From a virus (lineage: Duplodnaviria > Heunggongvirae > Uroviricota > Caudoviricetes): a DNA stretch of 40,150 bases. The notes beneath the pieces were generated by a model. It saw nothing but the letters and a program-made list of their open reading frames with translations. It was not told the DNA's origin and ran no database searches. Where the stretch lies: IMG/VR virus record IMGVR_UViG_2718218304_000002; one strand, given 5' to 3'. The position numbers were made by a program, and so were the translations under genes. Position 1 is the stretch's first letter, and every line of letters starts with the position of its first letter. Shown piece after piece: positions 1,826 to 38,619 of the stretch.

Positions 1826-3801
<1,976 letters not shown>

Positions 3802-18238: not shown

Positions 18239-18453
18239 TATTCACCTCTCGCAGCCTTGCGCTTATCTTCTTTAATCTTGAAATAAAGGTTTGTCAGGTA
18301 CGTCAGCAGGCCAAATACCAGGCTACCCAGCACACCGATTGCAGCCCACTGTGACGGAGTTACTCTATCGAGCAACTGTAAAAACCAGTAGCCAGCACTG
18401 CCTGCGGAGGTGCCGTAGGCAATGCCTGTTGAAATTTTGTCCATGGATTTCAT
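18238..18453 (-). CDS. Pinholin (phage-21 S-type, class II holin) with dual-start MKSM
   Basis: Within ORF 18238..18510 the sequence [26 protein letters not shown]... matches the S21 pinholin; two Met codons three codons apart give antiholin/holin forms. Confidence 0.85.
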
Positions 18454-19679: not shown

Positions 19680-20269
19680 TTTTCCTCACATATGTCATAT
19701 AGTAAAGGATTATATATACCGTTGTTTTGGACGCTCAAACAGCGAATCAGATCAAATAAAACGCACATTTGTTAACATTTACACAAAGTCTGCGTGGGAT
19801 ATTCTGAAAGAATATCCATAATGTGGAGAGAATCTATTGAAGTGCATGGTGCCGGGTGCCTCCCGGTGAACAAAATGTTCGTGATACCTGTCGGCGACAG
19901 AAAAGGTTAATGGTATCACCCCACCGCACAGGGGGATTCACCATGCAGGAGTTTTCTTAGCAAACTCACTGCGCGCCCGGCAACTCCCAACCACATAAAA
20001 TGCGGAGTTTGTGGTATTTATGCATATAACTCGCAGGAATTATCTTAAAAAACTGATGTCGATCCGGATTAAAAAGAAGCAGGTCATCATCAGATGACTG
20101 GAAAAAAGGAAAACAAAAAATACTCATCATACAGTTTTGATTGCAGGGATGAGCCTGCTATGCACAATATGCAGAATATAAGCAAGATAAAAATATGCAG
20201 GCATATTATTTCGGATTTTGTTATTAACACAACCTTTTTAATAATCATTTGGCATACAATAAACCAGCC

Positions 20270-23964: not shown

Positions 23965-24120
23965 TTACTCCCCAAGTTCGTAAGCTGTGAAGACAGCGAC
24001 CTCCGTCTGGTCGGTTCGGATTCGTACCTCGCAGAGGTCTTTCCTCGTTACCAGTACCGTCACTATAACGGTTAAACAGATGACGATCAGGGTGATTAAC
24101 ATCGCCTTTTGCTGCTTCAT
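23965..24120 (-). CDS. hok: Hok/Gef-family type I toxin (51 aa), with in-frame upstream mok-like extension to 24177
   Basis: MKQQKAMLITLIVICLTVIVTVLVTRKDLCEVRIRTDQTEVAVFTAYELGE matches recalled HokD/RelF-type toxins; ORF 23965..24177 adds 19 upstream codons; the leader upstream (- strand) has a hok-type 5' hairpin (GAGGCTATCTGCC...GGCAGATAG). Confidence 0.8.
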   Translation of the reverse strand: MKQQKAMLITLIVICLTVIVTVLVTRKDLCEVRIRTDQTEVAVFTAYELGE

Positions 24121-24168
24121 AGCCCGCTTCTTCTTGCCTTTCAGCACGTAAGAGACTAACCTACGTTT

Positions 24169-24235
24169 GTAAGGCATAGATTGGGCCCCAGATTAATGTT
24201 AAGCCTCTTGCCGGATGCGTAATATCAACTGGGAC
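24169..24235 (+). ncRNA. Putative Sok-like antisense RNA (approximate ends)
   Basis: On + strand, opposite the mok start: -35 TTGCCT (24134-24139), 17-bp spacer, -10 TAACCT (24157-24162) give a start near 24169. The 3' end is not defined. Confidence 0.3.
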
Positions 24236-24694
24236 TTTTTCTATCTGCCTTTGGTTTTCATGCCCAAGGCAGATAGCCTCAAGCCCCCGCAGCCATACTA
24301 TTTAACCCCCTTTACTTCGCCAATATGAAATCAATCAGAAAGGCGATCCATAAGAACAATAGCAAGACAATAAATTGCCACCACAGCCGCAATAGCCAAC
24401 GCACACTTGAGAACCAGCACGACAACCTCCTGTATTGGACGTGCACCTGCCCTGATAAATATGAGGCTGTCTCGTCAGTGATTCAATACAACTATTGGGT
24501 ATAGTTTCTGTGATTTTGTTCTGTAGAAATGGAATACAACAACCAGTCACTACCAGCACTTCTTTAAATACGCCAAGTCCGACGGAAGCCAACATCTAGT
24601 CTGCTTTGAACGAGGAGCTAACTTTGGTGTATATAGAAACATAATCACTACAGGTAGTTCCGAAAAAATTTCTCTATCGTGATACTTGCTGGTT

Positions 24695-31044: not shown

Positions 31045-31466
31045 TTAATGAACAATGACAGAATCGTCGGAAGAACCGCCGCCGCTGAAATGCGCTTTCC
31101 GGTAAACGGCTTGGACTGCATCATCATGCGCATCAATTGCCGTACTTAACGCTTCCTGCGCCGCCAGTAATGCACGGCGTTCCAGGGTATCGAAGATGCA
31201 GAGTCGGTGACGCAGCTCGCGCGGAAGGATTGCCAGAATTGCTGGGATCAGCTTCTGAATTTTTTCTCTTTGCGTTTTCGTTTCACCTTTCAACCAACGG
31301 TGATAGATATTCTGCTGATTGTTCCAGTCCTTGCCTGGAACCAGGGGCAATTCGCCGCCCCCTGGCGCAGATATTCTTCAGTAATTGCATTGGCTACCCA
31401 TGCCTGCCCTTTTTCGGCTGCTAGGGCAAACAACACTGATTCGATGTGCTCATGCTTGATTTTCAT
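31045..31466 (-). pseudogene. YdaT-like protein, reading frame broken at a homopolymer
   Basis: An N-terminal segment from ATG 31466 (MKIKHEHIESVLFALAAEKGQAWVANAITEEYLRQ...) and ORF 31045..31350 are in different frames; adding one base in the C5 run at 31358-31362 fuses them into a continuous 140-codon ORF. Confidence 0.6.
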
Positions 31467-31488
31467 GAATCATTTGCCTCTTGATGTT

Positions 31489-31785
31489 TCAGGTATGATC
31501 AAATGAGGATTTGTTACTGTCATTTAGTTGCTTCACTGACATATTCTGCGAACAACATGCCGAACGTCGTAAATATGACCAGTCAATATCAGGACGAAGT
31601 TCTTCGCACAGAACCTCACCTCTTGTTGCACGTTCAATTGCTGGACATCTCTCGGCAGGCAATTGACGTACCCCTTTGATCCATTGATTTACGCTTGGAG
31701 GTGATACACCTAAAAGCCTAGCCATTGCTGATTGCCCACCGACAACAGCACAAGCTTGCTTGAATGAATAGTTCTCTTTTTTCAT
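31489..31785 (-). CDS. ydaS: Cro-like HTH regulator
   Basis: 98 aa with HTH (...QSAMARLLGVSPPSVNQWIKGVRQLP...); divergent from the repressor gene; GGAG upstream. Confidence 0.7.
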   Translation of the reverse strand: MKKENYSFKQACAVVGGQSAMARLLGVSPPSVNQWIKGVRQLPAERCPAIERATRGEVLCEELRPDIDWSYLRRSACCSQNMSVKQLNDSNKSSFDHT

Positions 31786-31811
31786 CGAATGAACTCCAAA
31801 AACACACAGAA

Positions 31812-31854
31812 ATATTAGGCGACGCCTAACGCAATTGTCAATAGGCTGTGCCTA
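31812..31854. promoter_or_regulatory. Immunity-switch operator/promoter region between racR and ydaS
   Basis: Palindromes TAGGCGACGCCTA (31816-31828) and TAGGCTGTGCCTA (31842-31854); on the - strand TTGACA (complement of 31836-31841), 18-bp spacer, TAATAT (complement of 31812-31817) upstream of ydaS. Confidence 0.5.
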
Positions 31855-31908
31855 ATGCAGTAAGGGTAGGGATTGCCTAATGTAATGCGCATAGGAGAAT
31901 ATTAAGCA

Positions 31909-32385
31909 ATGCTTAGTGGTAAAGACTTAGGCCGAGCGATAGAGCAGGCCATTAACAAAAAAATCGCATCGGGATCCGTCAAATCAAAGGCGGAGGTCGC
32001 ACGCCACTTTAAAGTCCAACCACCATCAATTTATGACTGGATTAAGAAAGGCTCTATAAGTAAAGATAAACTTCCAGAATTATGGCGTTTCTTTTCTGAT
32101 GTTGTTGGTCCAGAGCATTGGGGGCTTAACGAATACCCCATACCAACCCCCACCAATTCAGATACAAAAAGTGAACTTTTAGATATAAACAACCTTTATC
32201 AAGCAGCCTCTGATGAAATAAGAGCGATTGTAGCTTTCCTGTTATCTGGAAATGCTACAGAACCAGATTGGGTTGACCACGATGTTCGCGCCTACATAGC
32301 AGCGATGGAAATGAAAGTGGGTAAGTATCTGAAAGCTCTTGAATCTGAACGGAAAAGCCAGAACATCACAAAAACTGGAACTTAA
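31909..32385 (+). CDS. racR: CI-like prophage repressor
   Basis: 158 aa with N-terminal HTH; divergent from the cro-like gene; matches recalled RacR. Confidence 0.75.
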   Translation: MLSGKDLGRAIEQAINKKIASGSVKSKAEVARHFKVQPPSIYDWIKKGSISKDKLPELWRFFSDVVGPEHWGLNEYPIPTPTNSDTKSELLDINNLYQAASDEIRAIVAFLLSGNATEPDWVDHDVRAYIAAMEMKVGKYLKALESERKSQNITKTGT

Positions 32386-32482
32386 ACTTATATGGTCTGA
32401 CGGAAAACTCCTGGATTCCGTTATTTAACCCCCCCATCACTTTCTGCTGTCGCCATCACCTATTAGGTTACGCTCAAAACAT

Positions 32483-32524
32483 TAGGCATAGCCTATTGAC
32501 AATCAATTAGGCATTACCTATAGT
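32483..32524 (+). promoter_or_regulatory. Candidate repressor-controlled promoter (TTGACA-17-TATAGT) with operator palindromes
   Basis: TAGGCATAGCCTA (32483-32495) abuts -35 TTGACA (32496-32501); spacer holds near-palindrome TAGGCATTACCTA (32508-32520); -10 TATAGT (32519-32524). The block TAGGCA(T/C)AGCCTATTGACAAT also occurs at the ydaS promoter. Confidence 0.5.
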
Positions 32525-32693
32525 TCCAGCATACCACCCACCCCGCCCCACAGAACGCCGGGCAATACTTCGAGTTACCAGGCAGTGGTAAGGGGTTAAG
32601 TAGCCAGCCCGAGGCGTATGAACATGACGGCGGGATTCAAATTTTGCAGTGCAGCAGTTAGTTCCGCCACCCGGCGTTAAGGGGAGAGATAAG

Positions 32694-32828
32694 ATGGTGC
32701 ATTACGAAGTAGTTCAGTATTTGATGGATTGTTGCGGTATCACTTACAACCAGGCTGTGCAGGCTTTACGCAGCAACGACTGGGATCTCTGGCAGGCAGA
32801 AGTCGCTATACGTAGCAACAAGATGTGA
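32694..32828 (+). CDS. Small prophage protein (44 aa), YdaG-like
   Basis: Below the ORF-track cutoff; ATG at 32694 preceded by GGGGAGAG; MVHYEVVQYLMDCCGITYNQAVQALRSNDWDLWQAEVAIRSNKM. Confidence 0.4.
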   Translation: MVHYEVVQYLMDCCGITYNQAVQALRSNDWDLWQAEVAIRSNKM

Positions 32829-32838
32829 GATTCGCAAA

Positions 32839-32994
32839 ATGCAAAAAATCGACCTCGGCAACAACGAATCCCTGGTGTGCGGCGTGTTCCCCAACCAGGA
32901 TGGAACGTTCACTGCCATGACGTATACCAAAAGCAAAACATTTAAAACCGAAACTGGTGCGCGCCGATGGTTGGAGAAGCACACAGTAAGCTAA
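32839..32994 (+). CDS. Small prophage protein (51 aa), YdaF-like
   Basis: Below the ORF-track cutoff; MQKIDLGNNESLVCGVFPNQDGTFTAMTYTKSKTFKTETGARRWLEKHTVS; stop overlaps the convergent sieB stop. Confidence 0.4.
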   Translation: MQKIDLGNNESLVCGVFPNQDGTFTAMTYTKSKTFKTETGARRWLEKHTVS

Positions 32995-33479
32995 CGATTA
33001 AAACGTCTACTCCTGCTGTTCCAGAATAACTTCATAAAATGGGAGTATTTTTCGGTGACGAGATAATAAGAACAGTTTGCGCTATCACTCTGATGTTGAA
33101 TGATGCCCTTCCGTTCTAATTTTTTCATAACCGGGTTACGGCAAGGAGAAGTGATAATAAGATTTCCTGTTTTAAGGAAATCTTTAAATACAGCGATTTC
33201 TTTCTCAGATAAACGAAGCAATACTCGTTGCTCTGGTAGTAATGAATAATGCTTTTGAATATGTGCTCGCAATCTTGAGAAGGAAATGGCGACCACGAAA
33301 GAAAAGGCAAAAACGATAATCTGAAAGAGCCAAGGTATTTCAGTATAAGCATTGAATGCGACAGTAAACTCTTTCGGTATCAGCCAGAGAGTGAGACCAA
33401 AAATGATAATCGTATACATAAGTCTTTCGAGTGGCTCGTTAGCAAAAAGTTTCAACAATGGAGTAAATACATCCAACAT
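32991..33479 (-). CDS. sieB: Superinfection exclusion protein B
   Basis: Within ORF 32991..33602, start MLDVFTPLLK (33479) gives 162 aa with two hydrophobic segments; matches recalled SieB. Confidence 0.65.
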   Translation of the reverse strand: MLDVFTPLLKLFANEPLERLMYTIIIFGLTLWLIPKEFTVAFNAYTEIPWLFQIIVFAFSFVVAISFSRLRAHIQKHYSLLPEQRVLLRLSEKEIAVFKDFLKTGNLIITSPCRNPVMKKLERKGIIQHQSDSANCSYYLVTEKYSHFMKLFWNSRSRRFNR

Positions 33480-38222: not shown

Positions 38223-38417
38223 ATGAGATATGACAATGTTAAACCATGTCCATTTTGTGGTTGTCCATCAGTAACGGTGAAAGCCATTTCAGGATATTAC
38301 CGAGCGAAGTGTAACGGATGCGAATCCCGAACCGGTTATGGTGGAAGTGAAAAAGAAGCACTCGAAAGATGGAATAAACGAACCACTGGAAATAATAATG
38401 GAGGTGTTCATGTATAA
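38223..38417 (+). CDS. ralR: Restriction alleviation protein RalR/Lar
   Basis: 64 aa from MRYDNVKPCPFCGCPSVTVKA... within ORF 38184..38417; Cys-rich zinc-ribbon-like. Confidence 0.7.
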   Translation: MRYDNVKPCPFCGCPSVTVKAISGYYRAKCNGCESRTGYGGSEKEALERWNKRTTGNNNGGVHV

Positions 38418-38619
38418 AATTACCGCTACTATTGAAAAGGAAGGTGGCACTCCTACTAACTGGACAAGATATTCAAAATCTAAACTAACGAAATCAGAAT
38501 GCGAAAAAATGCTCTCAGGTAAAAAAGAAGCAGGCGTTTCCAGAGAGCAGAAAGTAAAACTGATAAATTTTAATTGCGAGAAACTTCAGTCCTCGAGAAT
38601 TGCATTGTATTCAAATTAA
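38410..38619 (+). CDS. Small prophage protein (69 aa), YdaC-like
   Basis: From MYKITATIEKEGG... within ORF 38338..38619; start overlaps the ralR stop. Confidence 0.45.
   Translation: MYKITATIEKEGGTPTNWTRYSKSKLTKSECEKMLSGKKEAGVSREQKVKLINFNCEKLQSSRIALYSN

Follow-up and report, generated by a model that had tools for sequence, protein, structure and literature searches.

Palindromes of the RacR operator type cover a predicted leftward early promoter in the immunity region of the Rac prophage

Introduction

Few transcription factors of Escherichia coli K-12 are essential, and RacR, the repressor of the cryptic Rac prophage, is among them; its loss frees the toxic genes ydaS/ydaT and kilR as well as the RecET recombination system. 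Here we analyse the operators of RacR in a 40,150-nucleotide stretch of viral DNA (IMG/VR record IMGVR_UViG_2718218304_000002, one strand, numbered 5' to 3'; the whole stretch is called the window below), in which copies of a 13-bp palindrome, TAGGC-N3-GCCTA, lie on both sides of the repressor gene racR. Positions 31400-33000 gave a 100% match to E. coli K-12 derivatives by sequence comparison, and the locus is the immunity region of the Rac prophage of K-12, in reversed orientation relative to the usual K-12 map. Our main subject is a pair of palindromes downstream of racR (32483-32520), which we call the left pair, and the leftward early promoter that it appears to cover.

Phage lambda and prophage CP-933P are the described systems with which this locus can be compared. 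As in Rac, the lambda repressor gene is transcribed towards the leftward promoter, a divergent cro-type gene lies on its other side, copies of one palindrome about 24-26 bp apart cover both early promoters, and the repressor regulates its own gene through the sites nearest to it. The right operator (OR) sites OR1 and OR2 of lambda are 24 bp apart, close to the spacings in the Rac clusters. Both repressors also form octamers (for RacR: PMC11014345). The two systems differ in the operator itself (13-15 bp with a 3-bp central spacer in Rac, 17 bp in lambda), in the number of sites on the right and left (four and two clear ones in Rac, three and three in lambda) and in the distance between OR and the left operator, OL (about 0.65 kb in Rac with no rexAB between, 2.4 kb in lambda). 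Unlike the lambda-type repressor, RacR has no peptidase S24 domain; the proposed left promoter of Rac is followed by a conserved 163-nt leader and two tiny open reading frames (ORFs) with no N gene, unlike that of lambda; and, as a further difference, YdaS reportedly does not repress racR (PMC9638921). CP-933P of E. coli O157:H7 shares with Rac the order ydaT-ydaS, repressor gene, leftward promoter (PL), and a repressor that is an octamer without an S24 domain, but has another repressor specificity and other operators (repeats of the GTTTAGTAA type), a toxin-antitoxin pair, paaA2-parE2, that separates PL from the repressor gene, and three proposed OL operators (OL1-3).

In Rac itself, the region between racR and ydaS has been studied experimentally. 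Krishnamurthi et al. (2017) described three GCCTAA/TTAGGC repeats within the 123 bp between the two genes and binding of RacR to this region by electrophoretic mobility shift, thermal shift and chromatin immunoprecipitation (ChIP)-qPCR (PMC5700373). Wisniewska et al. (2022) found a single ydaS start by primer extension, with TTGACA as the -35 and TAATAT as the -10 element, and a mutation of the -10 abolished the promoter; they also mapped three racR promoters, of which the strongest gives a leaderless transcript, as in lambda, and derived from DNase I footprints of RacR a half-site ATTAGGC and the consensus (T/A)TAGGC-n3-GCCTA(T/A), with one operator overlapping the racR start codon and with the ydaS promoter protected at the lowest RacR concentration tried (PMC9638921). 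A later paper of the same group counted four inverted repeats and reported RacR as an octamer (PMC11014345). These studies cover the intergenic region and the racR start, the octamer has been ascribed to the four repeats found there, and the Rac switch is at present modelled from the racR-ydaS intergenic region only. In the literature searched we found no description of a Rac OL or PL and no RacR ChIP-seq, and neither the pair at 32483-32520 nor a promoter there is mentioned in PMC9638921, PMC5700373, PMC11014345, a 2025 paper on YdaT or a 2026 preprint using CRISPR interference.

Results

A search of the window returned three exact matches to TAGGC-N3-GCCTA (0.03 expected; three or more in 0 of 100 shuffles), at 31816-31828 (TAGGCGACGCCTA), 31842-31854 (TAGGCTGTGCCTA) and 32483-32495 (TAGGCATAGCCTA), exactly where an earlier sequence-only reading of this DNA had placed them, and the near-copy that it had noted at 32508-32520 is genuine (TAGGCATTACCTA, one mismatch). 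Allowing up to one mismatch brings the number of matches in the window to six (0.85 expected). The scan for further copies also brought out two sites that had been missed, at 31867-31879 (TAGGGATTGCCTA, one mismatch) and 31903-31915 (TAAGCAATGCTTA, two mismatches, with the racR ATG as its central triplet); the two sites claimed earlier for the right-side operator are therefore real, but the right cluster totals four, with centres at 31822, 31848, 31873 and 31909. This cluster spans the divergent ydaS promoter and the racR promoters in the 123 bp between racR (plus strand) and ydaS (minus strand). Neighbouring centres are 26, 25 and 36 bp apart in the right cluster; in the left pair, with centres at 32489 and 32514, the spacing is 25 bp. 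The half-site ATTAGGC occurs five times in the 40-kb window, which is a chance number, yet all five copies lie inside the two clusters. One lone match, at 18416, was rejected as an operator and treated as chance: it is a single partnerless site with one mismatch in a minus-strand coding ORF, where it encodes G-I-A-Y. The consensus scan also gave terminator-like matches at 31830-31814 and 32495-32483, which are minus-strand readings of the palindromes themselves; we rejected them as terminators because the half-site sequence is invariant rather than compensatory and the sites sit inside promoters.

The left pair is in register with a promoter-like sequence on the plus strand, TTGACA-17-TATAGT (32496-32524; -35 at 32496-32501, a 17-nt spacer, -10 at 32519-32524), which had been read from the sequence earlier, matches the consensus at 11 of 12 positions and is the sole 11/12 match in the window. 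We propose it as the early-left, PL-like promoter. Its distal operator site (32483-32495, exact) abuts the upstream edge of the -35, and its proximal site (32508-32520) fills the spacer and overlaps the first two nucleotides of the -10. The ydaS promoter, PydaS, has the same geometry on the minus strand (31841-31812; -35 TTGACA at 31841-31836, an 18-nt spacer, -10 TAATAT at 31817-31812; 10/12 consensus match), with OR site 2 (31842-31854, exact) against the -35 and OR site 1 (31816-31828, exact) in the spacer and over two nucleotides of the -10, and its hexamers agree with the published primer extension and -10 mutagenesis (PMC9638921). A 21-bp block is nearly identical at the two promoters, differing at one base (TAGGCACAGCCTATTGACAAT, minus strand, 31854-31834; TAGGCATAGCCTATTGACAAT, 32483-32503). 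The layout is the one proposed from sequence, that of a lambda-type immunity region: a repressor gene flanked by a rightward promoter (PydaS) and a predicted leftward one, each covered by copies of one palindrome. OR site 3 (31867-31879) lies over the racR promoters, and OR site 4 (31903-31915) over the racR start. The published RacR operators O1-O3/O4 (Krishnamurthi et al., 2017; Wisniewska et al., 2022) coincide with the right cluster in sequence and in consensus, and the ydaS promoter is the same one; this half is already known, and published experiments establish RacR binding there. We count a candidate third, degenerate left site at 32464-32476 as a conserved half-site only: its left half ATTAGGT is invariant in Escherichia loci, and its right half is highly variable (three mismatches in K-12).

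We then compared 90 RacR-encoding loci from two collections, mostly near-identical E. coli prophages. In 87 of the 90, the DNA downstream of the repressor gene carries a pair of sites at a spacing of 25 bp, neither with more than one mismatch; in two more the second site has two mismatches. L002, an E. coli racR locus with 86.7% nucleotide identity, has diverged in its central triplets and inter-site DNA but preserves every half-site to the left and right of the gene. Loci of Mixta, Morganella, Proteus, Achromobacter and Pigmentiphaga carry the cassette [TAGGC-N3-GCCTA]-TTGAC(A/T)-N6-[TAGGC-N3-GCCTA], the last two bases of which start the -10, although the N3 spacers, the 6-nt gap and the flanks differ among genera. 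All 10 specified positions of the distal palindrome are invariant in nine representative cassettes from six genera, and among 35 distinct cassette sequences it reads TAGGT in one E. coli-type locus. The -35 is kept in eight of nine diverse cassettes; the -10 is TAATAT in four other genera, identical to the mapped -10 of PydaS; and the proximal site, imperfect in Rac, is an exact palindrome at the same position in Proteus, Achromobacter and Pigmentiphaga. The cassette lies from tens of bp (74 bp in Achromobacter, about 100 bp in Rac) to about 1.2 kb beyond the repressor stop codon. On the right, OR site 1 has unchanged half-sites and a variable N3 spacer in three loci (L002, L007 and L090), OR site 3 is present in all RacR loci, and OR site 4 takes a one-mismatch form in Mixta, Morganella and Klebsiella (TAGGCAATGCTTA). 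The repressors of the five other genera are 57-62% identical to RacR overall, or 74-75% over the N-terminal domain, and the region of the recognition helix, PPSI[Y/H]DWI[K/N]KGSISK[D/E]KLPELW, is near-invariant among them. As judged from these sequences, the left pair and the predicted promoter are conserved together with the RacR DNA-binding domain across six genera.

Relatives with a different repressor bear on the same point. In a Rac-type prophage of strain ECONIH4 (L003), the ydaT and ydaG-ydaF-sieB-kilR flanks are identical to those of Rac, and the repressor and the cro-type gene are different. This locus has no TAGGC-N3-GCCTA at either operator position; it has a half-site of its own, AGTACAT, in four copies against 0.32 expected, two of them 24 bp apart between the divergent genes (the OR position) and two around the promoter after the repressor gene (the OL position), and homology to Rac resumes about 5 nt past the -10. 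The resumed sequence is the predicted 5' leader of the leftward transcript (32531-32693, plus strand, 163 nt), whose +1 we place at A32531, in a CAT 7 nt past the -10. With a conserved word of this leader, 80 further loci were sampled; their upstream sequences form 25 clusters, of which a few represent junctions that are not homologous. The same plan recurs in at least 15 immunity types, each with one palindrome next to the -35, a second, related one across the spacer and -10, and the common leader following. That L003 and at least 15 types place their own operators before one leader shows that the operators on both sides are exchanged together with the repressor; immunity specificity behaves as a module, and the left boundary of this module is at the predicted start of the leftward transcript. 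One of the types carries CP-933P GTTTAGT repeats. Because CP-933P-type repeats also stand immediately upstream of the same leader in phage Evi, we take the CP-933P promoter PL933P, which is repressed about 100-fold by PaaR2 and by YdaS in green fluorescent protein fusions (PMC8630535), to be at the equivalent position.

Published expression data point to RacR control of the genes beyond the left pair. These are ydaG (32694-32828) and ydaF (32839-32994), both on the plus strand and supported by ORFs, RefSeq and Pfam, at the start of the leftward operon, which runs on to kilR-ydaE-racC-recET. When racR was lowered by C protein, expression increased more than 70-fold for kilR and about 40-fold for ydaF, ydaG, ydaE and racC (PMC6765115). 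Cascade directed to +3 or +58 of racR lowered racR RNA 11- to 20-fold, and racC, recE, recT, kilR, ydaE and ydaG showed the pattern of ydaS and ydaT, which were induced more than 100-fold (bioRxiv 10.64898/2026.09.06.749655). Since racR transcription was blocked, this induction is not read-through from racR; from the induction of ydaG-recET under such a block we infer a separate RacR-controlled promoter beyond +58. Zygotic induction of the Rac recombination genes is known from classical genetics, as cited in PMC5917428.

By RefSeq annotation of the matching stretch the order is ydaT and ydaS (minus), racR (plus), and ydaG and ydaF (plus), with sieB (minus) and then kilR, ydaE, racC and recE (plus) beyond ydaF; ydaG is there a 44-aa "phage protein". 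The Cro-type regulator gene ydaS (31489-31785, minus strand; ORF, RefSeq, Pfam) is the first gene of the rightward, PR-like operon, and racR (31909-32385, plus strand; ORF, RefSeq, NCBIfam RacR equivalog) encodes the repressor of 158 aa. YdaS matches the Pfam families YdaS_toxin (107.7 bits) and P22_Cro (36.8 bits, cut-off 30.2). RacR matches NCBIfam NF049929 over its full length (244.6 bits, cut-off 200); its only Pfam match is HTH_17 at 18.7 bits, below the cut-off of 27, so that no Pfam helix-turn-helix (HTH) family lies above cut-off, Pfam gave no Peptidase_S24 match, and the PDB gave no sequence relative at E<=1. The description of RacR as CI-like in the sequence-only reading therefore holds for function and layout but not for sequence family. 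A published structure prediction gives RacR a CI-like five-helix N-terminal domain, with residues 38-47 as the recognition helix (PMC11014345). Lacking a peptidase S24 domain, RacR is not expected to cleave itself under RecA stimulation. In Achromobacter (L012, repressor at 2501-3598) and Pigmentiphaga (L013, repressor at 2501-3406), a domain about 75% identical to residues 1-77 of RacR is fused to Peptidase_S24 (51.2 and 56.1 bits, cut-off 23.3); these genes lie beside a YdaS/P22_Cro-family gene and have the same operators and layout on both sides. Going by these homologues, the RacR DNA-binding domain and its operators also occur with classical self-cleaving repressors, and the enterobacterial C-terminal domain differs, which would imply an exchange of C-terminal domains between SOS-cleavable and non-cleavable repressors of one specificity.

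Homology with heteroimmune phages starts within about 5 nt of the proposed +1, and the leader sequence of about 160 nt (from 32528) is 76-99% identical in at least 15 heteroimmune lambdoid phage and prophage types. Of 5,426 complete E. coli genomes, about 3,800 have a match to it, for the most part without annotation. Neither the operator region nor the leader had an Rfam match (gathering thresholds for the whole window; E<=10 for 32440-32860), the single-sequence fold of the leader is not better than that of shuffles (z = -1.6), and RNAalifold on 56 leader variants gave almost no covariation; what is conserved is primary sequence. The first 25 nt or so are about 50% C and 12% G, which is rut-like, and a CCCC close to the leader 5' end can base-pair with the GGGG in the ribosome-binding site of ydaG. 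The leader may act as a Rho attenuator, as an antitermination site, as a control element of the 5' untranslated region or as a recombination linker at the module boundary; a nutL/nutR- or putL/putR-style pair is disfavoured, as the window holds no second copy of the leader. The leader also contains an 18-codon ORF (MTAGFKFCSAAVSSATRR, 32625-32681, plus strand) that stops shortly ahead of the ydaG ribosome-binding site. All 56 variants keep the context of its ATG; the ORF is nevertheless unlikely to be coding, because indels of lengths not divisible by three occur in it. An E. coli-type leader (76% identity) also occurs in Actinobacillus phage vB_Apl-pPE4 (L097), with ydaT, kil and exodeoxyribonuclease VIII in Rac order, which reflects either a wide host range of this type of module or a questionable host assignment.

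Upstream of the left pair, the racR 3' untranslated stretch (32386-32460, plus strand) has a composition of about 40% C and 10% G, and prediction gave no intrinsic terminator on the plus strand between racR and the left operators. A Rho-dependent terminator, t_rac, located in or after racR, silences kil/kilR (PMC4150792), and the C-rich, G-poor stretch lacking an intrinsic terminator fits t_rac.

Discussion

We conclude, with a probability of roughly 85%, that the palindromes are operators for RacR dimers and that two clusters of them flank racR, the left one covering the leftward early promoter; the leftward half of this conclusion rests on the comparative tests and on the published derepression of ydaG, ydaF, kilR and recET. 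The left pair and its promoter appear to be an unreported but expected lambda-style element. In the mechanism that we propose, a RacR dimer would sit on each palindrome (T/A)TAGGC-N3-GCCTA(T/A), and at both early promoters one dimer would lie against the upstream edge of the -35 and another in the spacer and the start of the -10, so that bound RacR would exclude RNA polymerase from PydaS and from the leftward promoter. The latter, presumably a strong sigma-70 promoter (32496-32524), would read rightward in the window into ydaG-ydaF and on to kilR-ydaE-racC-recET, from a start at about 32531. We infer direct RacR binding at 32483-32520 and cooperative binding to the pair. The two further right-hand sites over the racR promoters would serve racR autoregulation, as published, and YdaS probably binds the same palindromes, by analogy with its CP-933P counterpart. 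Such a leftward promoter with its operators would explain the silencing of kilR and recET and their joint induction with ydaST, and with the left site in view the RacR octamer may be read differently. As biology this is the lambda pattern that one would expect; a known circuit would be completed, and there is no surprise in it.

Several observations weigh against this conclusion. By chance, 0.73 promoter matches of 11/12 are expected per 40 kb, and the promoter score therefore carries no significance by itself. In all Escherichia loci the proximal left site deviates from the palindrome (ACCTA or TCCTA), and its affinity may be low. A Klebsiella locus (L010) has no downstream pair within 2.4 kb, and the independent evidence of the survey amounts to about nine distinct lineages, not 87 loci. 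The literature searched holds no binding assay, footprint or start mapping for 32483-32524, and the derepression seen by RNA sequencing could be partly indirect, through YdaS/YdaT or through Rac excision and replication.

The left pair might instead serve mainly as an auxiliary looping site that contacts the right cluster and tightens ydaS repression and racR autoregulation, its local promoter being secondary or absent. RacR is an octamer in solution (PMC11014345), two OL dimers and two OR dimers would make an octamer, the OL-OR centre-to-centre distances of 641 and 692 bp would suit a loop, and PMC8630535 cites lambda and CP-933P as precedents. In every lineage, however, the left pair is locked in register with a near-consensus -35/-10, which pure looping would not need, and the downstream genes are derepressed on RacR loss even when racR transcription is blocked. 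We regard looping as the main role of the pair as possible, at somewhat worse than even odds; a loop between OL and OR through the octamer is compatible with promoter repression, would be an addition more than a rival, and may well occur as well.

Another explanation makes the left palindromes a RacR roadblock or terminator for racR transcripts, which together with t_rac would insulate kilR, and leaves the promoter match incidental. Rho-dependent silencing of kil (PMC4150792), the lack of a predicted intrinsic terminator before the palindromes, and the C-rich, G-poor composition of the racR 3' region and of the leader start are in line with it, but it leaves unexplained the fixed register of TTGACA and -10 across genera, the same layout at PydaS, and the induction of ydaG-recET under blocked racR transcription; a hairpin terminator is further opposed by the invariance of the half-sites, which show no compensatory changes, and by the absence of a T-run after them on the plus strand. 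As a replacement for RacR control of a leftward promoter it is improbable, whereas a roadblock as an extra function is possible. Tentatively, and as a rather unlikely combination, the left pair might both bridge to the right cluster about 650 bp away through the RacR octamer and block polymerases leaving racR for Rho termination; if so, it would be what chiefly keeps constitutive racR transcription from reaching the lethal kilR. That the downstream palindromes are chance or recombination-derived repeats with no regulatory role is extremely improbable, given three exact copies against 0.03 expected, a cassette kept across six genera while its surroundings diverge, and its coordinated replacement in heteroimmune relatives.

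Other observations

One RacR 100% identical to that of E. coli K-12 was found on a 5.2-kb contig (L006, JARKOR010000130.1) binned as "Candidatus Nanosynbacter", which is almost certainly E. coli contamination of a metagenome bin. Elsewhere in the window, the ORF that holds the near-copy at 18416 (18250-18453, minus strand, with an GGAGGTGAGG ribosome-binding site) is unannotated in the RefSeq record examined, and its product presumably resembles a phage-21-type holin. Rfam matches at the gathering threshold, all on the minus strand, lie at 1273-1471, 19790-19976, 24115-24288 and 38416-38594, and correspond to IS009, STnc100, the sok antitoxin and RalA.

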